From: Deltaproteobacteria bacterium
GTDB taxonomy: Bacteria; Myxococcota; Kuafuiibacteriia; Kuafuiibacteriales; Kuafuiibacteriaceae
Direction: 5' to 3'
NCBI GenBank assembly: GCA_040218735.1
Contig: JAVJQW010000061.1
Span: 64,001 to 128,000 of the forward strand
Length of the DNA stretch: 64,000 nt
Positions 17,559-45,944 of the stretch are shown here, piece by piece (the stretch's first letter is position 1; each line of letters opens with the position of its first letter). The notes under the pieces were generated by a model. It was not told where the DNA came from and made no database searches. It worked only from the letters and a program-made list of their open reading frames with translations. Both the position numbers and the translations under genes were made by a program.

Positions 17559-18164
17559 TCAGGGCGCGGCGGCGATCGCCTGGACCAGCTCGCCGAGCGC
17601 GGCCTTCGGGTCGTAACCGGTGACGACGGAGGCGATCTTGCCATCCCGTCCCACGACCACGGTGTGGGGCAGACTCGTCACGCCGTACCGCCGCGCGACG
17701 ATCTCGCCCCAGTCGCGCACCACAGGGAACGGCAGCTTCAACTCGTCGACCACGAGCTTCGTCATCTTCTCCTGCTCCCCTTTGTCCCCGATGACGACCA
17801 CGACGTATTCGGCCCCCGTATCGCGGATCGACGCCGGGCTCCGCGCGTAGTCGCCGAGCTCCTTCTTGCACGGCTCGCAGTACCAAGCGGCGAACGACAA
17901 GACGACGGGCCGCGGCGTCGTCGCCTCGTCCCCCACGTGGTCGCCGAGCTTGAACCGCTCGACGCCAGACAGCTCGGCGTTCTCGGTGTTCTGGAAGAAC
18001 AGGTGCGCCGTCTGCCCGGGGCGCCCGAGGTTCGACGGAGGCGCGTCGACCGCCTTCGCGGGGGTGTCCGCGACGACCGGTTGGGGATCCAGCGCCGTGG
18101 GGGTCGAGCTGCACCCGACGAGCAGAGGCAGGACGAGGACGAAGCGACGCACGGCAAAGCGCAT
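17559..18164 (-). CDS. TlpA/ResA-like thioredoxin-fold lipoprotein
   Basis: LLVGC lipobox; VVLSFAAWYCEPC active site; YGVTSLPHTVVVGRDG cis-Pro loop. Confidence 0.88.
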   Translation of the reverse strand: MRFAVRRFVLVLPLLVGCSSTPTALDPQPVVADTPAKAVDAPPSNLGRPGQTAHLFFQNTENAELSGVERFKLGDHVGDEATTPRPVVLSFAAWYCEPCKKELGDYARSPASIRDTGAEYVVVVIGDKGEQEKMTKLVVDELKLPFPVVRDWGEIVARRYGVTSLPHTVVVGRDGKIASVVTGYDPKAALGELVQAIAAAP

Positions 18165-18194
18165 CGCAGAGGAGCGGCTTGTGTAGCGCATCGT

Positions 18195-19505
18195 TCAGCG
18201 AATCGTCACGACACCGGAGCCCGTCTCCGGGGGTTTGTTCAGCACCACCACGGCGGTCGTCGTGCCCGCGGCGGCGACGCCGCCGACGATCGCCCAGACC
18301 CACCAGCGTGTGTACCAGGGGCTCGGTCGCTCCCTGAGCTCGGCCCAGACCAGGTTCTCTTCACCCGGCTGGACGAACACGTCGGAGGCCCAGGTGTAGT
18401 AGCCGTCCTTTTCGAGGCGCAGCTCGAGGCGGCCCGGGGCGTACTCGTTCTCGAGCTTCACCGGCGACTCACCCATCGGCGACTCACCCACGATCACGTC
18501 GGCGCCCGACACCGGCCCGGTGACCGCGATCTTACCCGGCAGCTTCGTGGAGACACCGACCAACTCACGCGCGACGGTCCGCACCGCGCGCTTCAACTCT
18601 TCCTTCGGCCCGCGGAACGCGACCGTGCGAAGGTTCTCGACGCGGACGTCCTCCTGATTGATGAGTTTCAGAGAGACCACGTACTCACGAACGCTGCTCT
18701 GTTCTTCTTCCTCCTCGTCCGCCAAGCCACCGAAGCTACCGACCTGCCCGGTCACGAGGTACTTCACGTTCAGCGAGCCCGAGATCCGCGCGAGGCACTC
18801 CTCCGCGCAGTCACTCCCGAACGCGTCGTCGTAGGTCGCCTTGCCGATCATCGCTTCGATCGCCGAAGGGTTGATGATCTCGGCGCCGTTTACCTTCGAC
18901 AGCTCCACGATCACGAACTCCGCGAGGTTCTTCACGTCGTCCTCGGGCACACCCGCCGACTGGATCCCGAACACGCCGATGCGGATCTTACCCTTGCTCT
19001 CGGGCATCTCGTACTTCACCGCTTGCCCCTCGCCGTACCCGAACAAACGCCCCAGCTGCGCCGGGAGCTGCGCGAGTGCATTCGGCACCGTCGTCGCGTT
19101 GGTCGCCTCGCGTCCGAGCACACGACCGTCCGCGGTCGACATCAGCGAGATCGTCAGGAGCATCTCCCGGCCGACACGACCGACCGTCGTGGAGACGAGG
19201 TAGTCCGCCTCCGTCGCGTTCTGAATCTTCGCCAGGCACTCCTCGTCGTCCTGACAGTTGACCGCGCTCTTCTTCGCCTCCGCCGCGAGCATGTCCTCGA
19301 CGTCGCTGCTCGTGACGACCGGGTACGCCTTTCGACCCTTCAGCGCCTCCGCGATCCCGTCCGCGATCTGCCGGTCCAACCCCTTCAGGTCGATGTCCGA
19401 CTTCACCGGGCCGACGAACACACTCCCGTTCGGCACCGCCGCGAATCCCGCGCTCGGCGCGAGCAACGCCGCGACCACCATCCATCCCCACCTAGAACGC
19501 ATCAC
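18195..19505 (-). CDS. Secreted PEGA-domain protein with two CsgG/TolB-N-like alpha/beta domains and a C-terminal TM
   Basis: Signal peptide; two C...EECLA.I....L.V..LV.G.VG repeats; PEGA-like GESPV...PG..ELRLEKDGY; PWYTRWWVW TM. Confidence 0.75.
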   Translation of the reverse strand: MMRSRWGWMVVAALLAPSAGFAAVPNGSVFVGPVKSDIDLKGLDRQIADGIAEALKGRKAYPVVTSSDVEDMLAAEAKKSAVNCQDDEECLAKIQNATEADYLVSTTVGRVGREMLLTISLMSTADGRVLGREATNATTVPNALAQLPAQLGRLFGYGEGQAVKYEMPESKGKIRIGVFGIQSAGVPEDDVKNLAEFVIVELSKVNGAEIINPSAIEAMIGKATYDDAFGSDCAEECLARISGSLNVKYLVTGQVGSFGGLADEEEEEQSSVREYVVSLKLINQEDVRVENLRTVAFRGPKEELKRAVRTVARELVGVSTKLPGKIAVTGPVSGADVIVGESPMGESPVKLENEYAPGRLELRLEKDGYYTWASDVFVQPGEENLVWAELRERPSPWYTRWWVWAIVGGVAAAGTTTAVVVLNKPPETGSGVVTIR

Positions 19506-21573
19506 AGTTCACCTCTTCGCGCTCGCTGAGCACCACACCGAGCTCCGCTTCGAGCTCGTCACACACCTGAAGGTTGGCCTTCGCCGACTCTTCGAACTCA
19601 CCGCAGAAAATCCGTCGCGAACACAGCGCCGCGCAGTTTTGGAGCAACCCGCTGTTCGGCGCCGTCAGGTTGTCATCGACGTCGAACACCGGGCTCGACA
19701 GCCCACGCTCCGCGTCGACCTCTACGACACACGCCGCCCGTTTCTCTTCGAACAACTTCGGCGAAGTGAACTCGACCGCCTTCAGCACCACGTTCAACGC
19801 GAGCGGCGGAATCGGGCACTCGCCGTCGTTCGACAACGCGGGCCACCCGTCCGCCTCGTACGCCAACAGCTGCTCGACGTCGTTCCCGCGCGAGCCCCTC
19901 CCGACGCGCGAGCTCTTGCTCCAGAACAGGTTGAACGACTCCGGCGACTGCGGCATCGAGTAGTCGCGGCACAGCTCGTTGTAGGTCGTGTCGCGGTACT
20001 CCGTGAACGTCGCGAAGTCCGCGAAACCCAGCTCGTCCTTCAGCGCGAGGTGACAGCTGTCGTTACAGTGCTCCGCGATGATCCGGTAGAAGCCCCGCTG
20101 CGACTCGTCCGCCGACCAGCCCGCCGGGATCTCCGTATCCGCGTGGAGGAGCTGCAGACGCTCCGCCGCACCCAACGGATCGAACACGTCCAGCGTCGCG
20201 AGGGTCTCGTCGTTCACCGGGAGCGTCTTCGTCAGCCGAATGAGCCGGTTGATCTCGAACGTGTCCTCCAAGTCCGCGCTCAGATCCGCGCGCAGCGGCA
20301 CGCGATCCCCGAGCGCCTCGCCGTTCGGCGCCGACACCACCGTCGACGTCAGGCTGTCGATGTCGATCCGCGTGCTGCCCTCCTCGATGGTCACGTTCGC
20401 TGCGACGTCGAACGCCTCCGCCACCGGACGCGACCGCATCAACGACGCATCGAACACGTCGGTCACCGACTGCGCCCGCGCGTCCCCGCCCGCCTCTTTG
20501 AGCGCTTTCAGGACGTTCTGCAGCGGCTCGAGCTCGCGCAGCGCGTAGCGCGGGTTGATCGGGAGGAACTGCGAGTCGAGCGCGACGTCCAACGGCAGCG
20601 GCGCGTCGACCGAGGTCGGCGCGTACGCCGCACCGCCGTGGCACGAGTTGCAGATGTTCGGGATCGTCTCGAAGACCTCTTCCTTGCCGTCGAAGTCGAG
20701 GTCGATCCGATCCATCAGCTCCGCCTGCCGGCCCGTGCCGCGGTAGCCGCCGAAGATCACCGCCGGCTCCGTCCCGTTCGGCGGCACGTCGTAGTGCATC
20801 GTCACCGACACCGCCTCGCAGGCCTGGCAGCCCGCGGCGAGGTCGTCCGGATCCGTCGGATCGCAGCGGCGCTCGCCGAGCGGCAACGACGTATCCTCCA
20901 CGAACAGGCCGCCAGGGACCGGGCGACCGTCGTCGTAGGACTCGGTCCCGGAGACACGCTCCGGGCAGATGTAGTTGAGGTTCACGCACGCGAAGCCGAC
21001 GCCCGTCGTGGGGTCGACGACCTTGCGGCCCGTGCGGTCCACGGAGTCGAGGCTGTTGCACAGCGTCACGCGGAACACCGGCAGCGCGTGCGCGTTGAAG
21101 TAGTTGATGTTGAGGTCGCGCGGCGGGCCCTGCGTGAAGTCGTGCGCAGCGAAGTTACCGTTCTGGCAGTCGGCCGACAGGCCGTACCGATCGCACCACT
21201 CACCCATCGTCGGCGGCACACCGCCGGCCGCGTAGTACCCCCCCGCCCAGGCCTTGCTGTTGGGCGAGCACGCGTCCCCGCCGAACAGCGGACCGGCCTC
21301 CGCGTCGGGGAACCCGCGTCGGGTTCCCGCCTCCTGCCGGATGCTGCGGGTGAGGTCGTTCGCGACGAAGTCCCCAGCGACGAGGTTCTTCACGGTGGAG
21401 TTCGAGCCGTCGAAGTTCTTGCAAGCCGGGTCGTCGTCGAAGTCGACGAACAGCCGGTCCGTATCGCTGAAGTGGTTGCCCCTCGGTGTATCCGCACCGT
21501 CGACGACGACCGGATCCGAACACCCCCCCGTGGCCGTCGCGGCCAGGGCCAACCCGATGATGAATCGATTCAC
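19492..21573 (-). CDS. Cys-rich lipoprotein with two heme c motifs
   Basis: GGAGGGG RBS + GTG; signal ending GGC; CNSCH and CNDSCH. Confidence 0.7.
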   Translation of the reverse strand: MNRFIIGLALAATATGGCSDPVVVDGADTPRGNHFSDTDRLFVDFDDDPACKNFDGSNSTVKNLVAGDFVANDLTRSIRQEAGTRRGFPDAEAGPLFGGDACSPNSKAWAGGYYAAGGVPPTMGEWCDRYGLSADCQNGNFAAHDFTQGPPRDLNINYFNAHALPVFRVTLCNSLDSVDRTGRKVVDPTTGVGFACVNLNYICPERVSGTESYDDGRPVPGGLFVEDTSLPLGERRCDPTDPDDLAAGCQACEAVSVTMHYDVPPNGTEPAVIFGGYRGTGRQAELMDRIDLDFDGKEEVFETIPNICNSCHGGAAYAPTSVDAPLPLDVALDSQFLPINPRYALRELEPLQNVLKALKEAGGDARAQSVTDVFDASLMRSRPVAEAFDVAANVTIEEGSTRIDIDSLTSTVVSAPNGEALGDRVPLRADLSADLEDTFEINRLIRLTKTLPVNDETLATLDVFDPLGAAERLQLLHADTEIPAGWSADESQRGFYRIIAEHCNDSCHLALKDELGFADFATFTEYRDTTYNELCRDYSMPQSPESFNLFWSKSSRVGRGSRGNDVEQLLAYEADGWPALSNDGECPIPPLALNVVLKAVEFTSPKLFEEKRAACVVEVDAERGLSSPVFDVDDNLTAPNSGLLQNCAALCSRRIFCGEFEESAKANLQVCDELEAELGVVLSEREEVNCDAF

Positions 21574-21677
21574 ACCCCCTCCGTGCGCCGAGGATGATGG
21601 ATCGATCATTCGGGATCGTCGACCCGATAAATGCATCGTTGACGTATTCGATGTCGCGGGAGAAATTCTCGCCCGAC

Positions 21678-22535
21678 ATGGGGGGATTTTTTCGACGCGC
21701 GGCGTCGTGCGCCGTTCTTTTGCTCTGCGCGTGCCCGCGCTCGGCCCCCGTGGAACCGAGCGTTCGGGGACGCCCCACCGTCGAGGTCGGGCCCTTCGAC
21801 CACGCGGCCCACCTCGCGCCAGCCGTCGGACTCGAGTGCGCGGCCTGCCACGTCGCGGTGCCCGACCAGGCCTACGCCCTCGTCCGCCCGGGCTCGGACG
21901 ACCACGCCCCGTGTGTGGCGTGCCACGAAGACGCCTTCCGCACCGAGCCGGCGGCGTTCTGCACATCCTGCCACGTCTCCGTGAACCCCCTGAAGAAGGG
22001 GGACAGCCCCCTCGGGGTGTATCCGTCCGTGAACCTCCGGGCGTCGTTGGTGTCGGCGTTCAATCACCAGCGCCACCTCGACGACGCCACCCGCGATGAA
22101 GGCGGCGCCGGCCTCGAGTGCGCGCAGTGCCACCGACCCTACGCCGAGTCGGACGCGTTCATGACGTTCCCGACCCACGCCGACTGCGCGCGCTGCCACG
22201 CCGCCGCCGTCGCGCCGCGGATGGAGAACTGCGCCGAGTGCCACCACAGCGACGGCCCGGGTCGCGCGCGTCGGTTCACGCGCGGCGACGTCCGCTTCAC
22301 CCACGCGAAACACGAGACGGACGTTCGCGGCGAGGCGGTCGCGTGCGCGCGCTGCCACGAAGCCATCCCGCGCAGCAGCTCGTCGGACGACCTCAACCTC
22401 CCGCGGATGGCGACGTGCAACACCTGCCACGACAGCGCCGAAGAGACCCCGGAGCGCGTTCGCATCACGCGCTGCGGGACGTGTCACCTCGACGACGTCG
22501 AGGCACAGCCGCTCCCCGGCTCGCACACACCCTGA
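21678..22535 (+). CDS. Nonaheme cytochrome c (three c7-like triheme units), probable lipoprotein
   Basis: 9 CxxCH; three FxHxxH...CxxCH...CxxCH...CxxCH units; LLLCAC signal. Confidence 0.9.
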   Translation: MGGFFRRAASCAVLLLCACPRSAPVEPSVRGRPTVEVGPFDHAAHLAPAVGLECAACHVAVPDQAYALVRPGSDDHAPCVACHEDAFRTEPAAFCTSCHVSVNPLKKGDSPLGVYPSVNLRASLVSAFNHQRHLDDATRDEGGAGLECAQCHRPYAESDAFMTFPTHADCARCHAAAVAPRMENCAECHHSDGPGRARRFTRGDVRFTHAKHETDVRGEAVACARCHEAIPRSSSSDDLNLPRMATCNTCHDSAEETPERVRITRCGTCHLDDVEAQPLPGSHTP

Positions 22536-22612
22536 TCGTATTCAGAAAAAGTCACGATCGCAGCGGAGATATTCTGATCGTTCGGCGCGTAGTCACGCAC
22601 GGACGGTAGGCG

Positions 22613-25600
22613 ATGAATTCTAAAATATTCGCGAAGTGCGCAGTGGCGGCAGGTCTGCTCGCCGGATGTCAGCAGGATCCCGGGCAGTTCCGGGTCGTAT
22701 TCGAGTGGGCGGACGGTGCTCCGGCGGCCGGGAGCGTGTGGATTCACGCGCGAGTCGAGGAGCGCGCCGGGGATCGAGACGCTCCCGGTCAGTCACTCCG
22801 CGCGGCGGATCCGGTCGCGTGGTCACCGGACCTTCAGCTGTCGATCGCGCCGGTGCTGCACGGCGACGACCGCGTCGTGGTGGTCGAGGTCTACCCCGGC
22901 GAGGAGGCCGATGGGCGCCCCTCGTTCTTCGGGTTGTCGGAGCCGTTCTCGCTCCAGCCGGGCGATGACAAGTCGGTGCCGGTCTACCTCGAGATCGCAC
23001 GCACGCCGACCCTCGGGGTGGCGACGGTGGAGATCACGAACGCCAACGAATTCTCGCGCATCGGCACGCCGCTCGCCGAGCTGAGGATCGTCGGGGAGGG
23101 CATCGCTCGGATCGAGGTCGCCAAGGACGCCGACTTTCAGATCGACGCCGAGCGCTACGAAGCCGCGGAGGTGAAGACCGGGACGGACGGAGAACGCGAA
23201 GTCTTCGAGCTGACCTACGATCTGAACAAGAACCTCGACTGCGCGAACGGCTGTGACGGCCCCCGACAGATCGCCGTCCGCGCGCGCAACGCCCAGGGCT
23301 ACCCGTCCGAGGTCATCAGCCTCCGCGTCGTCCTCGACACCGTCGGACCGCGGGCCGCGAACATTCGCATCACGCCGCAGAACGCGAAGGAGGACGACGA
23401 GGTCTTCCTCACGTTCGTCACCGACGAGACGGTGAGCAAGGACGAGGTCACCCTCGAATTCGAAGGTGAAGATCCGGGCTTCGTCCTCCGCGGCTCGGAG
23501 TCACCGCAACAGGTCACCTTCTCGTTCCTCGCCAACGCTTCACACTCCGTCGGCGGCGCGCCGACCCAGTACCGCCTCGCGCGCCTCACCCTCACCGACG
23601 ACCTCGGCAACGTCCGCACCGCGACCGTCCCCGACGACGCGTTGGTCATCGTCGACGCGAAGGCGCCGGAGATCGACGACGTCCAGGTGACACCGACGCT
23701 CGTCGGCAACACGATCGGGCAGACGATCCAGGTCGACTTCACGGTGAGCGAAGCGCTCGACCCGGACATCGGGCTGAGCGTCACGATCGAGCGCCCGAGC
23801 GGAACGCCGGCGCAGCTCGAATGCACGCAGACGCCGCAGGGCACCGAGCTCGATCCGGTCGACGTAACGTGCTCGCACGTCGTGACCGAGGAGGATCTCG
23901 ACGGACCGCGCGCGCTCGACAACCGCGAGATCTTGATTCAGGTGCTCGACCGCTCGCAGAACCGCGACAGTGAGGTCGGCAGCGTCGTGTTCGACCTCGA
24001 GCCCCCTGCGCTCGAGACGCTGAGCTTCTCCCCGGGCGCGGCGCGCGGCGGCACCGACGTCGTGCTTTCGGTGTTCCTGAGCGACGAGCTCGACCCCGCG
24101 TTCGCCCCCACGCTGGAGCTCGGCTACGCCCCGTCGATCGACGGCGTCCCTGCGCCGGTGTCGACGAACATCGCGCTCGCGAGCGTCGAGGGACGCGCGT
24201 ACCTGTACCGCTTCCCGATCACCGCGGCGGTGCCGGACGGGTACTACCGCGTCCTCGGGCTGACGGCGCGCGACGTTCGGAGCAACACTGCGACGATCAC
24301 CGCGCCGCTCTCACTACCGGCGTTGTCGGTGGACAGCGTTCCGCCCGAGCTGTCGTTCGTCGAGGTCCTCCCCGATCCGCCGATCGTGGGGATCGGTGAT
24401 CAGATCTCGGTCACGGTCGAGATGACGGAGCCACTCGTGGCCACGACGACGATCACGCTCGGCGGTGTCGACATGGGCAACTGCACGACGACGGCGACAA
24501 CCGCGCTCCCGATCCAGATGACATGCACGACGATGGTCACTGGCACCGAGATCCCCGCCGATACCGCGCAGAGCCTCGCCGTCGTCGCGACGACGGTCGA
24601 CCCCGCCGGCAACCGGACCCTGATCGACACGTCGGTGCTCTTCGACTTCGCGCCGCCCGTCGCGCGCGGCGCGTCGCTCAACCCATCGTTCGCGCGCGAG
24701 GGCACGCCGCTCTTCCTGGAGATCGTGCTGGACGAACCCGTCGTGAATCCGCCGGCCACCATCGACCTGGTTCGCATGGACGGCACGACGCTGACGCTGA
24801 ACGCTCAACCCAGCACCGGCGCGGCGCTCACCTATCGCCGCAACATCTCTGCTTCGGATCCGCAGGGTGTGTTCTTCTTCGAAGGCACCACGCTGACCGA
24901 CGCGCAGGGGAACACGGGGTACGTCGAAGCGCCGCTCGGGGTGTCGGTGGAGATCGACACGATCGCGCCCGCGGTGACGAACGTGAGCGTGATGCGACCG
25001 GTCGCGCCGCTCGATCGCGCCCGGCCGGGTCAGGCGGTCGACATCGCGTTCAACGTGAACATCGCCGGTGAGGCGACCCCGCCCACGCTCGAGATCGTCC
25101 TCGCCGGACAGACCATCCTGGCGCCCTGCCCGCAGACCGCAACGCAGATTGCGAACGGCTGCTCCACGACGATCACGACGGCGATGATCGCGCCCAACGT
25201 CGAAGAAATCGCTCCGCTCGTAGTGCGCGCGAGGGACGCCGCCGGCAACGAGGCCGTGGGGTCCGCGACGATCGTCCTCGACCGCCTCGCGCCGTCGCTC
25301 GCGGCGACCAACGGCGTCGTCTTCTCGCCGCCGGGGACGGCGGGTTCACCGACGACGGTCGGCCTCGGTGCGGTCGCGACGTTGACGCTCAACGCCGACG
25401 AGCGGCTGGCGATCACGCCCACCCTCACGATGACCCCGTCGAACCCCGGCTTCTTGCCCGAGGCGTCCGCGACGGGGCAGAGCTACACGTTCACGTATCA
25501 GGTCGAGGCCAACGCGACGGACACGACGTACACGCTGACGTCGGTGGTGCTCCGCGACCTCGTCGGCAACGTCCGAACCGTGGCGCTGACGACGCCGAAC

Positions 25601-36741: not shown

Positions 36742-37337
36742 CGCACACTCCCCTTGGCAGGTCTGGGGTTGCGAGCACCGGGGGGGTCGATGCCTTCGGC
36801 CTCGAGGAGCTGCAGCAGCCGCTTCTTACCCAGCCGCAGGCGACCTCGGACGGTGCCCTCCGGGATGCCGAGCATCTCGGCGACCTCGGGGCCCGACCGC
36901 CCCTCCACGTGCACGAGGATCAGCACCTCGCGCTGCGCGGCGGGGACACGTTCCATGAGACGTCGGATCCGATCCGAAGATTCTTTGCGAATGACGTCCA
37001 TCGCGGGCCCCGGTGCATCGTCCGCCACGTCGATCTCCTCCTGGGCTCCGACCCACCTCTTGATCCAGGCGCGACGCCGATATTTGGCCACGGTCTTACG
37101 CGTGATGCCGTAGAGCCACGACTTGAACTTGGTCGGGTCCTTCAGTGAACCCAGCTTCGTGAGCGCGACGATGAAGACCTCGTGCGCGATATCCTCCGGG
37201 TCGAGCCGCGGTCCGCACAACCGCGTGGCCCAGGTGACCACCACTTCGAGGTACGGGTCCACCAGCTGGGACTGCGCGACCGCGTCCCCCTTGGCTGCCC
37301 GTTCGATCAGTTCGCGTGTCGGCGTGTCGATGACCAT
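36738..37337 (-). CDS. ECF-family RNA polymerase sigma factor
   Basis: GGGAGGGG RBS; EDIAHEVF, FKSWLYGITR (region 2); EVAEMLGIPEGTVRGRLRLG (region 4). Confidence 0.92.
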   Translation of the reverse strand: MVIDTPTRELIERAAKGDAVAQSQLVDPYLEVVVTWATRLCGPRLDPEDIAHEVFIVALTKLGSLKDPTKFKSWLYGITRKTVAKYRRRAWIKRWVGAQEEIDVADDAPGPAMDVIRKESSDRIRRLMERVPAAQREVLILVHVEGRSGPEVAEMLGIPEGTVRGRLRLGKKRLLQLLEAEGIDPPGARNPRPAKGSVR

Positions 37338-37497
37338 CCCCTCCCGACCGCGCCGTGCGCTCACATCGAAGAATCGATCAATTCGATTTTCGAGTGATCG
37401 ATTGCAAGAACTCGATGCACGGTCAAGGCGGATGTCGGGGTTGCGTGCAATGTGGCACTGCGTTAGTCGCGACGTGGCTCGGGGAGGGGGGCGCTCG

Positions 37498-38052
37498 ATG
37501 CAACGCGCGGCGGTCGCACAAAGCTCGATCTTGTTGCTCACGGCGGCGCTGCTCAGCGTGGGTTACGCCTGCCGGTCGAACGGGGGTGAGTACCGCCGAT
37601 CCGAGCGCACGGCCGCGCGGTCGTTGGCGCTGGGCGAGGCCCCCGATGACCACACGATCTTCTTTCGAAAGAACCACGGCGGCGCCGCTTCCGCGCGCGA
37701 CGCCAAGTGTTCGTCGTGTCACCTCGGCGTCAGCGGGAGCCCGACGGACTCTTGCATGGACTGCCACGCCACGATGCGTCCGCGTGACCACACTTTGCGG
37801 TGGCGCGGGCCGGCGCACGGTCGCTCCTCGGCGATCGAACCCACCCGGTGCGCCACGTGCCACGAGGCCGACGTCTGCTCCTCCTGCCACGCAGTGCCGC
37901 CGCCGAGTCACTCGCCGCTGAGGACATTTCGGTTCCGGCACGCGCGGCCGGCCGCACGCAACCCACGGTCCTGCCTGACCTGCCATACGTTCGAATCCAC
38001 TTGCATCGATTGCCACGCGCTCGACGTCGCGCCGCCGGTGGGGCTGCGATGA
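37498..38052 (+). CDS. Hexaheme cytochrome c lipoprotein
   Basis: GGGGAGGGG RBS; VGYAC lipobox; 6 CxxCH arranged as three H...H...CxxCH..CxxCH pairs. Confidence 0.88.
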   Translation: MQRAAVAQSSILLLTAALLSVGYACRSNGGEYRRSERTAARSLALGEAPDDHTIFFRKNHGGAASARDAKCSSCHLGVSGSPTDSCMDCHATMRPRDHTLRWRGPAHGRSSAIEPTRCATCHEADVCSSCHAVPPPSHSPLRTFRFRHARPAARNPRSCLTCHTFESTCIDCHALDVAPPVGLR

Positions 38053-39668: not shown

Positions 39669-39678
39669 GGCCAGTGCG

Positions 39679-41859
39679 ATGGGCAACACGGTCTTCTACA
39701 CGATCCACGCGAGCAACAAGATCTCCGCGGACGAGATCGAAACGCGGCTCATGCCGCTCGCGTTCCTCCCGCCCAACGACAAGGAGCGGCGGCGACTCGC
39801 GTCCGGCGTGCTTCGGTCCTACTCGGCCGGCGAGAACATCTTTGCGCAAGGTGAGTACGGCACGTCGATGTTCGCGCTCATGCGCGGGCGCGTGAGCCTG
39901 CAGCTCGCCTCGGGGTTCGGTGCGGAGGCGCCGGGTTCGGAGGCGCAGAAGGGCATCGACATTCCGCTTCGGGTCCTCGACGCGGACGGTGATCAAAACT
40001 GGTTCGGTGAACGGGCCGTGCTCGGGCGAGGCCTGCGACCGTACACCGCGTGTGCGCTCACCGACGTGATGGTCCTGCAGATCGACAAGATCGACATCGA
40101 CCGCCTCGACGGCACGTACGGCGACGTCATCGCTCAGCTCGAACGCCTCTCCGAGCAGAACACGATCGAGACCTTCCTCCTCGGGCACCGCGCCTTTGCT
40201 TCGCTCACCTCGCGCGACCTACGACCCATCTGGTCGAACGGGCGACTCCGACAGTACGGACGCGGTGAAGTCATCGACCAACGTGGCGGATCCTCGGACA
40301 CCGTTCGGCTCGTGAAGGGCGGCGTGGCCAAACTCACCCGGGCGGGCGTCGGCGCCAACGCGCACGAGATCGTGCTCGCCTACTACGGCAGTGGGGATGT
40401 GGTCGGCACGGACGCCTCGCGGAGCCGGATGGGTTCGTTGCTCGCTATGAGTGTCACGGAGGTCGTGGAGGTTTCGAGGAACGCCTTCGACCAGGTCCGC
40501 GCGGTGGCCGAGGTGCAGCGCCCCGGTTGGTCCGAGCAGTTCGAGAAGGTCACCCTCGACGCCAACGATGCCCCCTCGCGCGTGAAGATCGGCGACGGCG
40601 CCTCTTCGCTCTTCCTCAACCAGCTCCTCGCCGACACCGCACAGGACGCGAAGTCACTGATGACCATCGATCTGGATCTCTGCATCCGGTGCGGCAACTG
40701 CGTGCGCTCCTGCGAGGCGCGCCACGGTTTCCCGAAGATGGTGAGGCGCGGAAACAAACTCGATCGCACGCCCGCGAACCCATCCGACCCCAAGCCGCTA
40801 CTCATCCCGACGTCGTGTCGTCACTGTGAGTCTCCGGAGTGCATGGTCGGGTGCCCGACCGGCGCCATTCACCTCAAACCCACCGGTGAGGTCGCGATTC
40901 GCAACGACTGCATCGGCTGTTCGAACTGCGCGCTGCGTTGCCCGTGGGACAACATCACGATGGTCGCGAGAGAGAAGGTCGAGCGGCCGGAGCTCGGGAT
41001 CGTCGTCGAGGAGATCGCGAGCAAGTGTGACCTCTGCTTCGGCTACTCGGAGGCCAACTGCGTCTACAACTGCCCGACGCAAGCCATCTTGCGCGTGGAC
41101 CCCGTGCAGTTCTTCCCGGAGGTCGCTGCGCAGCTGCCGGAGCGCAGGCACGCGCCGCAGGACGCGACGAAGCGCCGCACGGGTGCGGCCCGTGACCTCT
41201 CCCGGCTCGTCATCTGGTCCATCGCCGCGGTGCTGTTCGCGGTCCTCACGGCACTGTGGGCCACGGCGACTCCGTACAGCCCCGCGTCGGCGCGAGGCGG
41301 TGTCCTCGGTGGCGTCGCGCTGCTGTGTTTCGCGGGCGCCACCGCGCTCGCATGGCGAAGGCGGCGCAACGGGCTCGGGCGCCTGAAGGAGGAAGAACGA
41401 AACCGGCGCGCCGCCGACGCCAACGCACCATCCTCCGGGCGCGTGCAGTGGGGCCCGTTCTACCTGTGGGCGCGCGCGCACGTCGCGCTCGGCACGCTCG
41501 GGCTGGGCGCCGCGTTGCTGCACGCGGACTTCGCCGCGCGGAGCCTGCTGTCCGCGGGCCTCGTGTTGATGATGTTGTTCGCGATCGCGACCGGGCTGTT
41601 CGGCGTCTTCTGGGCGCGTTGGATGCCGAAGGCGATCACCCGCATCGAAGGGGACGCCCAGCTCGAAGAGGACCTGCGCGACGAGCTCGCGACGGGACTC
41701 GCCGACGAAGCCCGAGTCGCGCAGCTCGAAGCGGGGCTCCGCCTTCACGCCGTGCGACGTGTCTGGCTCGTCGCGCACATCTGCACCGCGGTCGGACTCC
41801 TCGCGCTCCTCGCGGTGCACGTGGTGGTGGGCCTTCGCATCCTGGGGGCGATGCTTTGA
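39679..41859 (+). CDS. Tandem cNMP-binding domains + 4x[4Fe-4S] DmsB/NrfC-like domain + His-containing membrane domain
   Basis: IFAQGEYG...WFGERAVL..R..TACA and a second cNMP-like repeat; CIRCGNCVRSC, CRHCESPECMVGCP, CIGCSNCALRCP, CDLC..CVYNCP; TM helices with four His. Confidence 0.85.
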   Translation: MGNTVFYTIHASNKISADEIETRLMPLAFLPPNDKERRRLASGVLRSYSAGENIFAQGEYGTSMFALMRGRVSLQLASGFGAEAPGSEAQKGIDIPLRVLDADGDQNWFGERAVLGRGLRPYTACALTDVMVLQIDKIDIDRLDGTYGDVIAQLERLSEQNTIETFLLGHRAFASLTSRDLRPIWSNGRLRQYGRGEVIDQRGGSSDTVRLVKGGVAKLTRAGVGANAHEIVLAYYGSGDVVGTDASRSRMGSLLAMSVTEVVEVSRNAFDQVRAVAEVQRPGWSEQFEKVTLDANDAPSRVKIGDGASSLFLNQLLADTAQDAKSLMTIDLDLCIRCGNCVRSCEARHGFPKMVRRGNKLDRTPANPSDPKPLLIPTSCRHCESPECMVGCPTGAIHLKPTGEVAIRNDCIGCSNCALRCPWDNITMVAREKVERPELGIVVEEIASKCDLCFGYSEANCVYNCPTQAILRVDPVQFFPEVAAQLPERRHAPQDATKRRTGAARDLSRLVIWSIAAVLFAVLTALWATATPYSPASARGGVLGGVALLCFAGATALAWRRRRNGLGRLKEEERNRRAADANAPSSGRVQWGPFYLWARAHVALGTLGLGAALLHADFAARSLLSAGLVLMMLFAIATGLFGVFWARWMPKAITRIEGDAQLEEDLRDELATGLADEARVAQLEAGLRLHAVRRVWLVAHICTAVGLLALLAVHVVVGLRILGAML

Positions 41860-44800
41860 CGCAGGAACGGCACGTCGTCGTCGAGGACATCGACGCCGAA
41901 GGTACCGGCGAGCTGATCCTCGCGCGGTACGCGGACCGCGCCGCGCTGTCGTTCCTCTTCGGCCCGCACGAGGGGCGCCACGTCTTCATCGGCGACGGGC
42001 CGCTCACGTTCGGGAGCGGGAACACGTGTGATGTCGTCCTGGACGGCGACGGCGTCGCGCGGGTGCACGCGAAGATCGATCGCGACGGACCGAACTGGAT
42101 CCTGACGCGCCTCGACGCATCACTTCCGCTCGCGGTGGACGACCGCGCCGTCGCTTCGGCGTGTGTGTTGATCCACGGCGCCACGATCTCGGTCGGGCCG
42201 TCCCACGTCGTGTTCCTCACCGACGTCGTCGACCGCCGCGAAGGCACGCTCGCCGCGACGGTGCCCGCGTCGGCCGAGGCGGCGCGGTTCGTGTTGCCCG
42301 ATGGCCCCGCCAAGAAGCCGGGTGTGCTGCTCGGCTCGAGCCCGACCTGCGACGTGCCGCTCCTCCTGCGCAGCGTGCAGCGTCGACACGCGCGCATCGA
42401 CTACCGCGTTCGACCGACGGAGGGGGGCCCGCTCACCGGGGCCTTCGAGCTGTCGGATCTCAGCGGCGGTTCGACGTTCGTCAACGGCGACAAGGTTCAT
42501 AAGAAGTGGCTCGACACCGGGGACGTGATTCGCCTCGGCGGCTACGAGCTGCGCACGACGATCCGCGAGAACCGCTGTGAGATCACCGCGGCGGTCGTGG
42601 AACCGGACCGCGACATCCCGAGCTACGCGATCGACGTCCCCAGCGGACGAGCGGGCGCCACCGTGCTCCCGCGCCCGTCGGACGCACGCTCCGCCCAGGC
42701 CGCACCGCCGCGCTTCAGCCTGCAACCCAAGGACGGGAGTGTGTTCCGCACGCCGACCGAGATACTGCACAACGGCGCGACGATCCTCGCGCCGCAGGTC
42801 GCGCCGAAGGACAACCGCCTCGCGGTGAAGTGGAAGGAGCCGGACGACGTCCGCACGAGCACCCGGCTCCGCAACGCGGTCCTCGTCAGCGTCGCGCTGG
42901 GTGTCGTCACGGCCGGCGCGCTGATCTTCGCGGGCGGTGACGAGGTCTCCGCGCTCCCGCCCGTCCGCCACACCCAAGATGTCGCGTGCGCGAGCTGCCA
43001 CGTCGGAGGCGCGGCCGCCACGCCGACCGTCGAGGCCTGCACCAGCTGTCACGAACACGAGGGGTACGAGCATCGCGTCCGCCCTGCGCACGCGTTCGGC
43101 GAGGACATCACGAGCTGCGCCGACTGCCACGGCGAGCACCGTGAGGCGTCGGAGCCGAAGCAGGTCGCGAGCGCGCGATGCGCCGCGTGTCACGAGTCGC
43201 GGCATTCGAAGCTCGTCGTTCGCGGCGCCCCGCCCGAGATCGTCGAGGCGCCGGGGATCTTCGCGGACGTCGAGGAGACACCTCGACCGTATCGACTCCA
43301 GCTGCACCGCCTTCACGACGCGGTGCCGCACCGGTGCCGTGCGTGCCACGAAGCGGACGGTGCCGCGCGTTCGCCGGGCGCAGCCTGGAACGCGTGCGGG
43401 AGCTGCCACGTCCAGCTCGCCGAGGGCCTCGCGATTCAGTCGTGCGCGAGTTGCCACGTCGAACACCGCGACGAACGCGCCGCGCCGGCGGAGCGCACGT
43501 ACGCCGCGGCGAGCGCGTTGCCGTGGTCGGCGGGGATCGTGCTCGGGTTCTTGTTGTTGACGGCGCTGCTGCTGCGCGTCGTGCCGAGCCGCGCGCACGA
43601 GCGGGAACGCAAGGTCACGCACGAGGAGGTTCCGCCGCCGGGGCTCGGACGCAAGAAGGAGCTCGAGACACCGCCGACCGAGTGCCCCGGTGCGGAGCGT
43701 GGACAAGCGATCAAGCTGCCTCGGCTGTACCCGGAGAAGTGCGTCGGGAGTCGGACGTGTGTGGAGCGCTGCCCGTACAACGTGCTCGAGATGAAGGACG
43801 GCCTCCCCGAGCTGGTCGCGCCGCACAAGTGTCACGAGTGTGGGATCTGCGTGGAGGTTTGTAAGTTCAACGCGCTCGAGATGGTCGAGCCGAACAAGCC
43901 GGCCAAGACGGAGGAAGTGCCCGCGCTGTCCGCCGACTTCGAAACGGGGCTCACGCCCGAGCGGCGCGGCCTCTACGTGATCGGACACGCAGCGGGCGTG
44001 TCGAAGGTGAAAAACGCGGCCAACCTCGGGGTGTGGGTCGTGCAGCACATGATCGACGAGGGCGGTGTGAAGCCAGGGGCCGCGGCGCGACTTGGACTGT
44101 CCGCCGAGGTCATCATCCTCGGCGCCGGCCCCGGTGGGTTGGCGGCCGCCGTCAACGCGCGCGAGGAGGGGCTGACTTCGATCGTCTTCGACGTGGAGGA
44201 CGAAACACTCTCCACGATTCGTAAGTACGGCGCGACGAAGAAATACGAGGCGAACCCACCCCACGTCGAGAACAAGGGTCCGTTCGTGCTCGAGACCGGG
44301 CAGCAACCTGGCTTGCTCTCGGCGATCGAGAGCGTCGTCGTTCGCGCGGACCTCGACATCCGGTTGGGCGTGAAGCTCGCGAAGGAGAACAGCCTCACGC
44401 AGGACGGTGACGTGCTGACGCTCGACACGAATCAGGGCGCCTTCACGGCGCTTCGGTTGATCGTCGCGGTCGGGATGGGAGAGCCGCGCAAGCTCGGACC
44501 CGAGGTCCCGGTCGCGCCGGGTACGGACATTCGTTACTCGATCGTCGAGGGTGAGCCGCCGAAGGGTAAGGCGGTGATGGTGAACGGCGCCGGTAACATG
44601 GCGCTGGAGGTGGCCGCGCAGCTCGAGGCCCGCGGGAATCGGGTGACGATCATCTACCGCGGAGACAAGTTGAAGAGCGCGAGCCCCGGGAACGTCGAGA
44701 TGCTGGAGCAGCTCGTCGGAGCGGGGCGGCTGACACTCCTCATGGAGACGTCTCCGGTGGCGCTCGCGCCCGGCGCGGTGACCGTGCGCACGAAGGACGC

Positions 44801-44966
44801 CCCGTCCGACCAGCGCATCGACGCCGACGTGTTCTACTGCCTGATCGGCCAGATCGCGCCCACGAAGTGGCTCGATGGCCTCGGCGTCCCGGTCAAGGAC
44901 CGCCCGATGACGGAGCGTGTCCCCCGGACCGACCAGCCTCAGTTCTTGCTGCGCAAACAGGAGTGA
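41856..44966 (+). CDS. FHA-FHA-TM-heptaheme c-TM-ferredoxin-FAD/NAD(P)H oxidoreductase fusion
   Basis: TTGA overlap; two FHA-like domains; 7 CxxCH between two TMs; CVGSRTCVERCP and CHECGICVEVC; GLYVIG, GAGPGG, GAGNMA. Confidence 0.85.
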   Translation: MTQERHVVVEDIDAEGTGELILARYADRAALSFLFGPHEGRHVFIGDGPLTFGSGNTCDVVLDGDGVARVHAKIDRDGPNWILTRLDASLPLAVDDRAVASACVLIHGATISVGPSHVVFLTDVVDRREGTLAATVPASAEAARFVLPDGPAKKPGVLLGSSPTCDVPLLLRSVQRRHARIDYRVRPTEGGPLTGAFELSDLSGGSTFVNGDKVHKKWLDTGDVIRLGGYELRTTIRENRCEITAAVVEPDRDIPSYAIDVPSGRAGATVLPRPSDARSAQAAPPRFSLQPKDGSVFRTPTEILHNGATILAPQVAPKDNRLAVKWKEPDDVRTSTRLRNAVLVSVALGVVTAGALIFAGGDEVSALPPVRHTQDVACASCHVGGAAATPTVEACTSCHEHEGYEHRVRPAHAFGEDITSCADCHGEHREASEPKQVASARCAACHESRHSKLVVRGAPPEIVEAPGIFADVEETPRPYRLQLHRLHDAVPHRCRACHEADGAARSPGAAWNACGSCHVQLAEGLAIQSCASCHVEHRDERAAPAERTYAAASALPWSAGIVLGFLLLTALLLRVVPSRAHERERKVTHEEVPPPGLGRKKELETPPTECPGAERGQAIKLPRLYPEKCVGSRTCVERCPYNVLEMKDGLPELVAPHKCHECGICVEVCKFNALEMVEPNKPAKTEEVPALSADFETGLTPERRGLYVIGHAAGVSKVKNAANLGVWVVQHMIDEGGVKPGAAARLGLSAEVIILGAGPGGLAAAVNAREEGLTSIVFDVEDETLSTIRKYGATKKYEANPPHVENKGPFVLETGQQPGLLSAIESVVVRADLDIRLGVKLAKENSLTQDGDVLTLDTNQGAFTALRLIVAVGMGEPRKLGPEVPVAPGTDIRYSIVEGEPPKGKAVMVNGAGNMALEVAAQLEARGNRVTIIYRGDKLKSASPGNVEMLEQLVGAGRLTLLMETSPVALAPGAVTVRTKDAPSDQRIDADVFYCLIGQIAPTKWLDGLGVPVKDRPMTERVPRTDQPQFLLRKQE

Positions 44967-44999
44967 TCGTTTCGCGCGGGTCGCCGCACGACGGAGGTG

Positions 45000-45944
45000 A
45001 TGCTGCTGAAGAACGCCCGCCGCCTCGTGATCCTCTGCACCGCCGTCCTCCTCACGAACCCGCTCACGGTCTGTGTCGTGGGCCGAATCAACCGCCTCCT
45101 CGGCCGCCCGCTATGCACGATGTTCGTAGGTTACGCCGCGAGCCGGGAGTACAGCCAGGCCTACGCCTTCTCGTTCATGCTTCCCTGGATTCGCTACACG
45201 CCGATGATCGTCGGACTGTTCATCCAGAACGGGCGACTCGGAATCATCGCGATGACGAGCTCGGTCGAGCCCGACTTCCTGTCGCCGGTGCACCTCGACC
45301 GGCTCCACGAAGGCTGCCACCGAATCGCGGAGCGCCTCGGCATCGAGGAGGTGAACTTCTCGGGCATCCTCCCCACGGTGTTTCGGCGCGCGGGGCTGAT
45401 GACCGAGCTGCATCATCAGTCGCGCTGTCGTGTCGTGGGTCGCGTCGTGACGGACGCGGCCATTCGCACCGCGGAGGCACACGACATCGACGCGTACCTC
45501 CCGATCGTCCTGTTGGGCGGGCGCGGCAGCGTCGGTCGAGCGGTCTCGGCGGAGCTGGGACGACGTGGACGCACGTGTTTCATCGTGGACCTGAACGATC
45601 GATGGCCGGAGCACCTCCGCGGCGAGCGCATCCTCCTCGTCGACGTTTCCAAACGCGGCGCGCTCGAACGCCGCGCGTCGCAGCTGTGGGAAGGCGTCGT
45701 GGTCCTCAACGAGGCCTACCCCGAGCCCGACCCCGGCACGGTCCGCGCGCTGCGCGCCCGCGGGATCGCGGTGCACCACGTGTGCGGCGTCGCGGCGACG
45801 TCCTTGCCGCCCTTCCCGGGCGCGTACGCCGGCGGCGTCCCGTGCTGCGCAGCGCGAGAAGATCCGGGACTTCGGGCCGTGGTCAAGACGCTGAGTGGCG
45901 TCCCGCGACGAAGCGCGGCGAACAAGACACGTCGCGCCGCCTGA
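45000..45944 (+). CDS. Hypothetical protein with Rossmann-like motif
   Basis: GGAGG RBS; IVLLGGRGSVG; followed by a terminator. Confidence 0.7.
   Translation: MLLKNARRLVILCTAVLLTNPLTVCVVGRINRLLGRPLCTMFVGYAASREYSQAYAFSFMLPWIRYTPMIVGLFIQNGRLGIIAMTSSVEPDFLSPVHLDRLHEGCHRIAERLGIEEVNFSGILPTVFRRAGLMTELHHQSRCRVVGRVVTDAAIRTAEAHDIDAYLPIVLLGGRGSVGRAVSAELGRRGRTCFIVDLNDRWPEHLRGERILLVDVSKRGALERRASQLWEGVVVLNEAYPEPDPGTVRALRARGIAVHHVCGVAATSLPPFPGAYAGGVPCCAAREDPGLRAVVKTLSGVPRRSAANKTRRAA

Follow-up and report, generated by a model that had tools for sequence, protein, structure and literature searches.

A Myxococcota multiheme cytochrome cluster as a candidate signal-gated electron pathway from cytoplasm to cell surface

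The subject of this study is a multiheme cytochrome cluster in a 64,000-nucleotide stretch of DNA (hereafter the window; positions 64,001 to 128,000 of the forward strand of contig JAVJQW010000061.1, assembly GCA_040218735.1) from a Deltaproteobacteria bacterium of the family Kuafuiibacteriaceae (Myxococcota), whose genome of 11.6 Mb is 96% complete. The cluster brings together c-type cytochromes, an outer-membrane beta-barrel and two large fusion proteins, termed here core proteins 1 and 2, in which cyclic nucleotide-binding (cNMP), FHA, iron-sulfur (Fe-S), flavin and membrane domains are combined, and which might carry electrons across the inner membrane.

Layout of the two operons and their heme content

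Genes were called from codon-position GC content, open reading frame (ORF) lists and translations, the window having ~69% G+C. On the plus strand, five genes with intergenic spacings of -4 to +30 nt form an operon (37498-45944), which is followed by a hairpin (TM, transmembrane):

37498-38052, plus strand: hexaheme c-type cytochrome of 184 aa, with six CxxCH heme motifs and a signal peptide
38049-39668, plus strand: outer-membrane beta-barrel of 539 aa, with a signal peptide and without a plug (AlphaFold2, Foldseek)
39679-41859, plus strand: core protein 1, 726 aa, with two cNMP domains, four [4Fe-4S] cluster motifs and a five-TM domain (Pfam, alignments)
41856-44966, plus strand: core protein 2, 1036 aa, with FHA, heptaheme, ferredoxin and flavoprotein domains (Pfam, NCBIfam, TM segments, 17-row alignment)
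44997-45944, plus strand: 315-aa protein without family assignment, carrying a GGRGSVG motif and perhaps binding NAD(P) through a Rossmann-type fold
45968-46005, plus strand: hairpin resembling an intrinsic terminator, with a 16-bp stem, nine GC pairs and a T run

Divergent from it, across a gap of 160 nt between the ECF sigma factor gene and the hexaheme gene, runs the minus operon (37337-29178), whose genes overlap by at most ~25 nt or are separated by at most 9 nt, and in which the kinase gene is the last:

36738-37337, minus strand: ECF sigma factor (PF04542, PF08281; TIGR02937 at 2.4e-27, over the cut-off)
35977-36741, minus strand: anti-sigma-like protein of 254 aa with a single TM segment (78-96) and a Pro-rich linker, so named from its position after the ECF gene
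33149-35977, minus strand: secreted protein of ~940 aa with a weak transglutaminase-like core (Pfam, NCBIfam)
32359-33144, minus strand: secreted nonaheme cytochrome of c7/c3 type, with seven CxxCH and two CxxxxCH motifs
31637-32362, minus strand: secreted nonaheme cytochrome of c7 type, with eight CxxCH motifs, one variant and a TIGR04257 triheme domain
30786-31784, minus strand: nonaheme cytochrome of c7 type, with eight CxxCH motifs and one CxxxCH, the likely start Met lying at 31661
29178-30776, minus strand: receptor-type Ser/Thr kinase of 532 aa with a TM segment (327-345) and an external C-terminal part (Pkinase at 3e-43)

Two divergent operons with a terminator after the plus operon had been put forward in an earlier, sequence-only reading of the same DNA; gene calls and domain matches bear out this layout, and the hairpin lies where the terminator had been placed. 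The same reading had spoken of about 51 heme motifs, and our count likewise gives 51, namely 46 canonical CxxCH (9+8+8+7+6+7+1) and five CxxxCH/CxxxxCH variants. Outside the cluster, CxxCH occurs in a single ORF (13470-14222) among the high-GC3 ORFs listed for the 64-kb window, and thus the heme load of the cluster is not a matter of chance. The genome as a whole is rich in cytochromes, as 36 of its ORFs carry at least three CxxCH motifs and cytochrome c assembly genes are present; the cluster is therefore one among several multiheme loci.

The gene labels of the earlier reading held at the level of domains, two of them on weaker ground. The protein called transglutaminase-TPR (33149-35977) reaches Transglut_core at E 0.006, under the cut-off, together with a partial NCBIfam ProA-like match at 3e-19. 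The one called Rossmann (44997-45944) gave no Pfam, NCBIfam or PDB sequence match, its atlas look-alikes being Shikimate_DH-like and of Rossmann type (0.85-0.90), a lead only. Furthermore, no Pfam family matched the anti-sigma-like protein. Next to the end of the plus operon, the first-GTG listing of a fasciclin-domain ORF (45895-47010, plus strand) would span the hairpin 45968-46005, so that translation must in fact begin downstream of it.

Two core proteins at the inner membrane

Core protein 1 is a member of a wide, unnamed family (107 matches in the homolog search) whose representatives in Myxococcota, Acidobacteriota and Nitrospinota carry no annotation beyond cyclic nucleotide-binding or Fe-S protein. 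Its conserved residues were traced in two alignments (24 and 56 members, 26-53% identity). In the first cNMP domain the FGE...R phosphate-binding cassette is intact, with G110 and R120 invariant and F109 and E111 nearly so; the second domain retains the glycines only. The top PDB sequence matches of this part are the regulatory subunits of PKA and PKG, and neither a signal nor a Tat motif was found ahead of the cNMP domains. The following Fe-S part contains four cluster motifs (Cys positions 335-345, 380-392, 411-421 and 450-465), all 16 Cys of which are invariant in both alignments; its NCBIfam matches are partial and under the cut-offs. An AlphaFold2 model of residues 320-726 (pLDDT 89.4, pTM 0.86) was compared with solved structures, and the Fe-S half retrieved by Foldseek the four-cluster subunits HycB, ArrB, PsrB and FdnH (entries 7z0s_B at 8.7e-7, 6cz7_B, 7qv7, 2vpw_B and 1kqf_B, the latter being FdnH).

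The membrane half carries the most telling residues of the family. Four TM histidines, arranged as the pairs H601/H615 and H700/H714, each with i/i+14 spacing on a single TM helix, are kept in 33 of 33 sequences. Nine of these are stand-alone membrane proteins from loci of Acidobacteriota, Nitrospinota and Rhodothermales, where their genes follow short genes of the cNMP/Fe-S type. The Lys and Arg residues of the loops (6/7/8 on the cytoplasmic side as against 0/1/0 outside) give a predicted topology with the N-terminus inside, five TM helices and the C-terminus outside, in which the two His-bearing helices run parallel. From this parallel arrangement it would follow that a heme held by H601/H700 lies near the cytoplasm and one held by H615/H714 near the periplasm. 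The best structural match of the membrane half is a designed di-heme four-helix bundle (Z 10.7, rmsd 2.5 over 101 residues), followed by the TM domain of STEAP4 (Z 10.3, rmsd 4.6 over 152 residues), CybB (Z 8.4) and cytochrome b561 (Z 7.7), all four values being such as helical bundles can attain by chance; a sequence search of solved structures found nothing for this domain. Ligand pattern and fold suggest that this C-terminal five-TM domain most likely binds two b hemes and provides the putative membrane-crossing step.

The TTG start of core protein 2 overlaps the TGA stop of core protein 1, and the two genes are predicted to be translationally coupled. Core protein 2 comprises, in this order, two FHA domains, a TM helix, a heptaheme c domain with seven CxxCH motifs, a second TM helix, a two-cluster ferredoxin and a thioredoxin reductase (TrxR)-like flavoprotein, with PF00498 (FHA) matching in two stretches at 1.1e-21 and Fer4 matching the ferredoxin part. 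As each inner flank of the two TM helices around the heptaheme domain carries seven Lys and Arg residues, these loop charges predict a periplasmic heptaheme domain, whereas the N-terminal FHA domains and the C-terminal ferredoxin and flavoprotein are cytoplasmic. Heme domain and reductase thus come to lie on opposite sides of the membrane, as the earlier reading requires; the step across the membrane would most likely be made by the di-heme b domain of core protein 1, which that reading had missed, the heptaheme c domain itself being periplasmic.

The flavoprotein part matches Pyr_redox_2 at 3.8e-18, and its FAD motif (G756xG758P759xxG761) and NAD(P) residues (G911...E918, R935) are invariant in the 17 aligned rows, in which no Cys pair that could form a redox-active CxxC is conserved in this part. 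The NCBIfam matches TRX_reduct and YpdA fall far under their cut-offs, and we take the domain to be closer to TrxR-type ferredoxin reductases than to disulfide reductases. The NADPH flavoprotein of the earlier reading hence stands as a flavoprotein, NADPH and NADH being indistinguishable by sequence.

The combination of both core proteins bears on one alternative, namely that the five-TM di-heme domain has a quinone site like that of NarI or FdnI, so that the module is quinone-linked and its flavoprotein accessory. Formate dehydrogenase-N and nitrate reductase are indeed built in this way, with a four-cluster subunit on top of a di-heme b anchor, Foldseek retrieved FdnH (1kqf_B) with the Fe-S half, and the authors describing a comparable gene cluster in Ferrigenium straubiae consider, in the portion of their preprint that bears on it, quinone reduction (bioRxiv 10.64898/2026.01.22.701106). 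Yet Pfam gave no match to NarI-, FdnI- or NrfD-type anchors, a catalytic molybdo-subunit is absent, the Fe-S domain shares its chain with a cNMP sensor and has an NAD(P)H flavoprotein as a recurrent partner, be it as a neighbour or in a fusion, and the adjoining, translationally coupled gene encodes a TM-tethered heme c domain. We thus consider a quinone-linked module distinctly improbable.

Conservation, the outer-membrane leg and neighbouring genes

A profile scan with one genome per species returned at least 541 confirmed relatives among 599 matched stretches. The locus comparison uses the best 80 of these relatives (37 Myxococcota-type, 37 Acidobacteriota, two labelled "proteobacterium", two "bacterium", one Nitrospinota and one Rhodothermales), and homologs were counted by phmmer, with 18 window proteins searched against all ORFs of the 80 loci. 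Core protein 2 has homologs in 48 of the 80 loci, the kinase in 22, the ECF sigma factor in eight, the hexaheme protein in seven and the barrel in five; among the nonaheme cytochromes, 31637-32362 has homologs in 16, 21594-22535 in 14, and 32359-33144 and 30786-31784 in seven each. None of the 80 loci holds a homolog of the TlpA-like, PEGA, diheme, giant lipoprotein, transglutaminase-like, anti-sigma, 315-aa or fasciclin proteins.

Synteny around the core gene, i.e. the gene of core protein 1, is pronounced. Among the 59 loci with at least 3 kb of downstream sequence, 52 have an ORF with at least three CxxCH motifs on the same strand that starts within 5 kb downstream and mostly overlaps or abuts the core gene, and 41 have a ferredoxin/flavoprotein homolog; both figures are undercounts, as run-on ORFs hid the loci L001, L011 and L028. 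The chance expectation, calculated from the cytochrome density of the own genome, is ~0.9% per locus, a value that gives the scale only, related genomes not being independent. Along with the recurrent positions of the ECF and kinase genes, these counts answer in the affirmative whether the genes co-occur elsewhere.

The arrangement of the parts varies among lineages. The full fusion of FHA, heme, ferredoxin and FAD domains occurs in the Myxococcota loci L001, L004, L005 and L007-L009 and in the Acidobacteriota loci L031, L050 and L054; we had considered the big fusion to be nearly unique and dropped this idea, as full-length fusions occur in nine loci. Polyangia-type loci show the order kinase, five-heme protein, core gene and heme-ferredoxin-FAD gene, and Pyrinomonadaceae-type loci the order core gene, heptaheme gene and separate ferredoxin-FAD gene. 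In L044, L071 and L080, a tetra- or heptaheme gene is followed by a cNMP/Fe-S gene, a membrane ORF of ~270 aa and a decaheme gene, the FHA proteins being separate, and in P0097 and P0100 a flavoprotein, two cNMP domains and a four-cluster Fe-S part form a single chain.

Of 401 sampled genomes of the phylum, 15 gave a match to the core gene, all of them belonging to two families, and the module is present in the cultured Labilithrix luteola DSM 27648, Enhygromyxa salina DSM 15201 and Paraliomyxa miuraensis SMH-27-4. The own genome harbours a paralogous module on contig C67 (L089, 9768-18265), composed of a divergent nonaheme gene, a core gene for an 810-aa cNMP/Fe-S/membrane protein (32% identity) and a gene for a 603-aa FHA-FHA-heptaheme protein that has neither ferredoxin nor flavoprotein; the next ORFs, of 530 and 564 aa and with no Pfam match, might encode barrels. 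A partial third copy on contig C42 (L090, 9207-11366, minus strand) encodes a 720-aa protein with the four-cluster Fe-S and membrane parts and no cNMP domain match, and adjoins a 1166-aa TPR protein with a CcmH/CycH-like TPR match.

The regulatory genes hold conserved positions as well. In seven of the eight ECF-positive related loci the ECF gene is divergent and directly upstream of the core gene, in 16 of the 22 kinase-positive loci the kinase homolog lies on the same strand 0.6-3.3 kb upstream of it, and FHA proteins adjoin the module in Acidobacteriota and Rhodothermales loci. Such a density of signalling parts (cNMP domain, two FHA domains, ECF sigma factor, anti-sigma factor, receptor kinase), in conserved gene positions in the case of the ECF and kinase genes, would also suit a redox sensor, in which the heme chain reports the extracellular or periplasmic redox state to the Fe-S/cNMP/FHA parts, the ECF/anti-sigma pair and the kinase with little net electron flow. 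However, 51 heme sites, six Fe-S clusters, a flavoprotein and a barrel far exceed the needs of a sensor, neither core protein is fused to a Pfam-recognised output domain (DNA-binding, cyclase or kinase), and the flavoprotein recurs with the module and is even fused to it in P0097 and P0100, so that a mere sensing function appears quite unlikely to us.

The outer-membrane leg is represented by the hexaheme gene and the barrel gene, which overlap by 4 nt. The barrel protein has no Pfam or NCBIfam match and 100 relatives at E<=1e-3 (full HMMER scan, 50%-identity representatives). An AlphaFold2 model, built from an alignment of 49 relatives (pLDDT 87.5, pTM 0.84), folds into ~22-24 long antiparallel strands, and all its top Foldseek matches are outer-membrane barrels (AlgE, FimD, TonB-dependent receptors). 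With a second aligner (VIA), barrels of 22-26 strands lead (SusC, Z 17.0; Cir, 15.4; FimD, 15.1), whereas MtrB (6r2q_B; Z 13.9, 371 residues aligned) reaches rank 18, tied with TonB-dependent and usher barrels. The porin claimed from the sequence is thus modelled as a large plug-less barrel, for which these comparisons do not single out MtrB. As to the hexaheme lipoprotein claimed along with it, the six CxxCH motifs are there, and its status as a lipoprotein is weak, given the non-canonical lipobox VGYAC; a sequence search of solved structures gave no match to it. We propose this cytochrome as the partner of the barrel.

This pairing recurs in relatives. A metagenome scan with an alignment of close barrels yielded three loci, and in all eight barrel-positive loci (five from genomes, three from metagenomes) the barrel gene adjoins a hexaheme or nonaheme-hexaheme gene. 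Hexaheme homologs are fused to a nonaheme in L005-L009, L055 and L091-L093, next to a barrel gene save in L008 and L009; homologs of the nonaheme 32359-33144 are in turn fused with the next nonaheme into proteins of 14-17 hemes (L001, L005-L009). After the barrel, three relatives encode a protein of 1150-1180 aa with six CxxCH motifs (L001, 18820-22281; L091, 4823-8356; L092, 4814-8347), which is a candidate surface cytochrome. Among the 401 sampled genomes of the phylum the barrel occurs in four, all of which also possess the closest core genes.

The same data bear on whether the electrons leave the cell at all. Alternatively, the module might feed low-potential electrons to multihemes that stay within the periplasm and there either store them or reduce, for example, peroxide, nitrogen oxides or metals, or serve as a redox overflow valve, with the barrel being a substrate porin. 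Most loci consist of core gene and multihemes and are devoid of the barrel (present in 5 of 80 loci and 4 of 401 genomes), which resembles substrate channels at least as much as MtrB; furthermore, PtdA, encoded by an operon with a similar parts list, falls into the NrfA COG, and a role in nitrogen cycling is suggested in the pertinent part of the preprint describing it (bioRxiv 10.1101/2023.11.21.568154). Against a periplasmic endpoint speak the adjoining or overlapping hexaheme-type gene in 8 of 8 loci and in the window, the ~22-24 strands and missing plug, which fit a cytochrome-filled porin, and the large multiheme protein following the barrel in three relatives. In addition, a catalytic heme site was not identified in the window cytochromes, whose Pfam matches are to c7/c3 electron-transfer types. 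We regard this alternative as rather unlikely.

The genes at 17.5-29 kb, which had been counted as part of the system, are all present:

17559-18191, minus strand: TlpA/ResA-like thioredoxin lipoprotein with a CEPC motif (AhpC-TSA/Redoxin; ResA-like at 9e-17, under the cut-off)
19492-21609, minus strand: lipoprotein with one CxxCH and one CxxxCH motif and no family match
21594-22535, plus strand: fourth nonaheme cytochrome, with nine CxxCH motifs, the likely start Met at 21678 being followed by a lipobox (LLCAC)
22613-29173, plus strand: giant lipoprotein of 2186 aa with Kelch and Ig-like domains and no heme motifs

Only the nonaheme 21594-22535 could be linked to the module, since its homologs are fused to the hexaheme in relatives (15-heme fusions); for the others no link emerged. 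The idea that 17.5-46 kb forms one system was rejected, as eight of the 18 window proteins have no homolog in the 80 related loci.

Elsewhere in the window, further loci were noticed. An 885-aa fusion (1717-4374, minus strand) of an EgtD-like histidine methyltransferase with DinB_2 and FGE-sulfatase (EgtB-like) domains looks like a single-chain enzyme of ergothioneine-type biosynthesis. The segment 8690-12853 encodes, on the minus strand, an exosortase fused to an Rce1-like CAAX protease, and also comprises two ORFs with no Pfam match and an enzyme resembling MbnB/TglH/ChrH, which modify ribosomally synthesised and post-translationally modified peptides; it may be a peptide-modification locus. 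Finally, in a regulator at 61176-62702 (minus strand) an FHA domain is combined with a sigma-54 AAA+ activator domain and with DNA binding of the OmpR type (Trans_reg_C), and a separate FHA protein and a Ser/Thr kinase are encoded at 57300-60329.

The proposed electron pathway and its relation to known systems

From these results we propose, with confidence and doubt about evenly balanced, that the products of the cluster conduct electrons from the cytoplasm to the cell surface along a signal-gated route independent of quinones. Cytoplasmic NAD(P)H would reduce the FAD of the TrxR-like domain of core protein 2 (41856-44966), whose ferredoxin domain would pass the electrons on to the four [4Fe-4S] clusters of core protein 1 (39679-41859). 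The inner membrane would then be crossed via two stacked bis-His b hemes, from H601/H700 on the cytoplasmic side to H615/H714 on the periplasmic side, and the electrons would enter the periplasmic heptaheme c domain, which is TM-tethered at both ends. Secreted c7-type nonahemes could relay them to the hexaheme in the barrel, and the hexaheme-barrel pair would hand them over to an external or outer-leaflet acceptor. Cofactor occupancy, protein-protein contacts, direction of flow, donor and acceptor are what we infer in this scheme; it is built on the observed domains and their topology, on ligands that do not vary within the family, on the fold of the barrel and on synteny and fusions conserved among relatives. 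An inner end made of FAD, Fe-S, cNMP and FHA parts had already been suggested from the sequence and stands as an architecture, with the use of NAD(P)H and the direction of flow still conditional. Similarly, the suggested wiring to cNMP, FHA, kinase and ECF signalling is supported as to the parts and the recurrent positions of the ECF and kinase genes, but not as to the phosphothreonine-binding residues of the FHA domains.

The direction of flow deserves particular attention. Outward flow would be dissipative, because it is redox-downhill and helped by the membrane potential (standard bioenergetics), as in NADPH oxidases, and a dissipative process would explain the presence of cNMP and FHA switches, of an ECF sigma/anti-sigma pair and of a receptor kinase. 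Conversely, Fe(II), reduced humics or another donor in the periplasm or outside the cell could supply electrons that enter through the barrel-cytochrome pair and run inward to the cytoplasmic Fe-S clusters and flavoprotein, with NAD(P)+ or ferredoxin as the species reduced there. In principle a multiheme wire can conduct either way, the Tmc and Hmc complexes carry electrons inward from periplasmic oxidation of H2 or formate, according to the section of the source that treats them (PMC10920352), and relatives of the module occur in lithotrophs: the preprints cited above, in the parts relevant here, place the Ferrigenium cluster in an Fe(II) oxidation context and the ptd operon in nitrite oxidizers. 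Inward flow would nevertheless oppose the inside-negative membrane potential (standard bioenergetics), the reduction of NAD(P)+ by donors at the level of Fe(II) is strongly uphill, and no pump or Q-cycle that could couple it to the proton motive force is encoded here. Members of the Myxococcota are, moreover, usually organotrophs, which weighs against inward flow as well, and we hold this reversal to be unlikely.

Returning to the outward, quinone-independent pathway, several observations weigh against it. Binding of heme b to the five-TM domain is deduced from ligand pattern and fold, Z values of ~10 can be reached by unrelated helical bundles, and the domain may carry a quinone site. Ferric_reduct (PF01794) does not match the five-TM domain of the window even at E<=10, and its matches in relatives are sub-threshold (E 0.08-3.3, in four of nine); hhalign against five genuine Ferric_reduct members gave a probability of 2.3%. 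A PF01794 scan of the own genome did not pick up core protein 1 either, and with both the scans and hhalign negative we rejected membership of the domain in the ferric reductase family; we propose that it works like a di-heme TM cytochrome b, not filed under Ferric_reduct. In core protein 2, the Arg and Ser that bind phosphothreonine are replaced in both FHA domains of the window (Ser/Ala in FHA1, Ser/Gln in FHA2). In the ten FHA-bearing rows, Arg (of GR) is kept in five and eight and Ser (of SxxH) in eight and five for the two domains, and His in all ten, the window being the only row with none of the four Arg/Ser residues; control of its FHA domains by the kinase is therefore doubtful. The first ferredoxin motif (residues ~629-639) reads CxxSxxCxxxCP in the window and in L001, as against CxxCxxCxxxCP in the other 15 rows, and with this Ser-for-Cys exchange the site might hold a [3Fe-4S] cluster or recruit its fourth ligand from elsewhere. 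As the flavoprotein is absent from the C67 paralog and from many related loci, NAD(P)H is not a universal donor. At the outer end, L008 and L009 carry the hexaheme fusion and have no barrel homolog at E<=1e-5, and no large surface cytochrome is encoded within the cluster, the own genome having, on contig C41, only a distant homolog of the 1150-1180-aa six-heme protein of relatives.

To our knowledge, the well-studied Gram-negative routes of extracellular electron transfer all start at quinol dehydrogenases (CymA, ImcH, CbcL), so that a route from cytoplasmic NAD(P)H or ferredoxin, with a b-heme crossing and second-messenger switching, would represent a second design principle and account for an orphan gene set that is widespread, comprising at least 541 relatives, the ptd operon and the Ferrigenium cluster of Fe(II) oxidizers. 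Owing to the four invariant histidines, the central membrane step is open to direct testing, and an electron wire gated by cyclic nucleotides would be of interest to bioelectronics.

The closest description we are aware of is that of the ptdABCDEFG operon, named in the marine Alphaproteobacteria UBA11136 and others (bioRxiv 10.1101/2023.11.21.568154). The part of this preprint devoted to the operon lists a pentaheme, a porin, an FAD/NAD(P) oxidoreductase, a periplasmic tetraheme, a cNMP-binding 4Fe-4S protein, a ferric-reductase-like TM protein and a periplasmic decaheme, reports the operon from marine oxygen-deficient zones, and calls its function completely unknown. The parts list is common to both systems, and here, as in ptd, the porin gene stands beside a multiheme gene. 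However, the cNMP/4Fe-4S and ferric-reductase-like TM proteins of ptd are fused here as 39679-41859, and the FAD/NAD(P) oxidoreductase and periplasmic multiheme, found in the same operon there, are both contained in 41856-44966, where tethered heme, ferredoxin and flavoprotein are fused behind two FHA domains. Heme numbers differ (5/4/10 in ptd, 6/7/9 here), with deca- and tetraheme forms in the distant loci L044 and L071, and as far as the description of ptd goes, two Fe-S clusters are stated there as against four counted here. The present cluster has in addition four c7-type nonahemes and the ECF sigma/anti-sigma/kinase operon. The gene order of L044, L071 and L080 resembles ptd, and kinship to it is suggested by the matching parts list and gene order, compared by description. 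As a side observation, near-identical DNA to 39679-44966 (at least half of the sampled words) was found, besides the possible source sample, in six sequencing runs of three studies; these are sponge, aquaculture and biofloc metagenomes, consistent with the saline habitats reported for ptd clusters.

A second description concerns the Ferrigenium straubiae cluster around a nonaheme cytochrome (NHC) of the type FHA-TM-nonaheme (bioRxiv 10.64898/2026.01.22.701106). Going by the passage of the preprint on this cluster, NHC is encoded beside a [4Fe-4S] protein of the cytosol and a protein of five TM helices that matches no database entry, and the cluster is expressed under all conditions tested, its function being unknown. 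In both systems a TM helix connects FHA in the cytosol with multiheme c in the periplasm, whereas flavoprotein, cNMP domain and barrel are unreported in that passage, and one TM helix stands against two here. Its authors saw no redox motif in the five-TM protein; in the family studied here four His are invariant. What our comparison adds to both accounts is the four-His signature of the TM step, the family-wide synteny and fusions, and a distinction between conserved parts and mere neighbours. Literature searches returned no functional characterisation of ptd, of systems with ferric-reductase-like, multiheme, 4Fe-4S and FHA parts, of cNMP plus multiheme extracellular electron transfer systems or of quinone-independent ones. 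Hence the statement that no characterised system could be recognised needs to be amended, as the parts list had already been named ptd and an FHA-nonaheme cluster described, both of unknown function; the present system is a heavily fused Myxococcota variant of a described, uncharacterised kind.

Better-studied systems resemble it in logic. Tmc and Hmc, transmembrane redox complexes of sulfate reducers, contain a NarI-type cytochrome b and an HdrD/CCG-type Fe-S subunit; neither of these types was matched by Pfam or NCBIfam among the window proteins, so that the resemblance is one of logic only. This shared logic is that of a periplasmic multiheme c, a membrane b cytochrome and a cytoplasmic Fe-S path, as outlined in the relevant section of PMC10920352. 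Unlike the system described here, Tmc and Hmc are devoid of flavoprotein, cNMP and FHA parts and of an outer-membrane leg.

The Mtr and Pcc systems differ at the inner end, which in their case is a quinol dehydrogenase of the CymA, ImcH or CbcL kind. At the outer membrane, a large plug-less barrel beside a multiheme gene is common to MtrCAB/Pcc and the present cluster, in which the partner has six hemes and an extracellular decaheme-type lipoprotein is not encoded, judged against the relevant portions of PMC4245776 and PMC4282303.

With respect to the inner membrane, an analogy is offered by NADPH oxidases, STEAP and ferric-reductase-domain proteins. The chain of NAD(P)H, flavin, two stacked bis-His b hemes and an acceptor on the far side would be common to both, as are the i/i+14 His spacing and the two parallel TM helices, and STEAP4 is the best natural structural match of the five-TM domain, at a Z value within the chance range of helical bundles. 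By analogy, both would also carry out a dissipative and tightly regulated process. Differences are found in the number of TM helices (five here, six there), in a predicted relay of six Fe-S clusters inserted here between flavin and hemes, in the type of the flavoprotein (TrxR-type here, FNR-type there) and in the acceptor, which is O2 or a metal there and would be a multiheme c chain here. Tentatively, and with more doubt than for the cluster itself, we suggest that the whole family might represent a class of gates in the inner membrane that has so far gone unrecognised and through which bacteria export electrons, in analogy to NADPH oxidases. In the lineage described here, a barrel and its cytochrome would extend such a gate to the cell surface and thereby permit extracellular reduction on demand and outside of respiration, for instance in iron acquisition, in a redox attack on prey or as a valve for electron overflow. 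Electrons from NAD(P)H would pass via flavin, six Fe-S clusters and a pair of b hemes to multiheme c cytochromes independently of the quinone pool, with a cyclic nucleotide as the direct switch, joined in most members by the binding of phosphothreonine.

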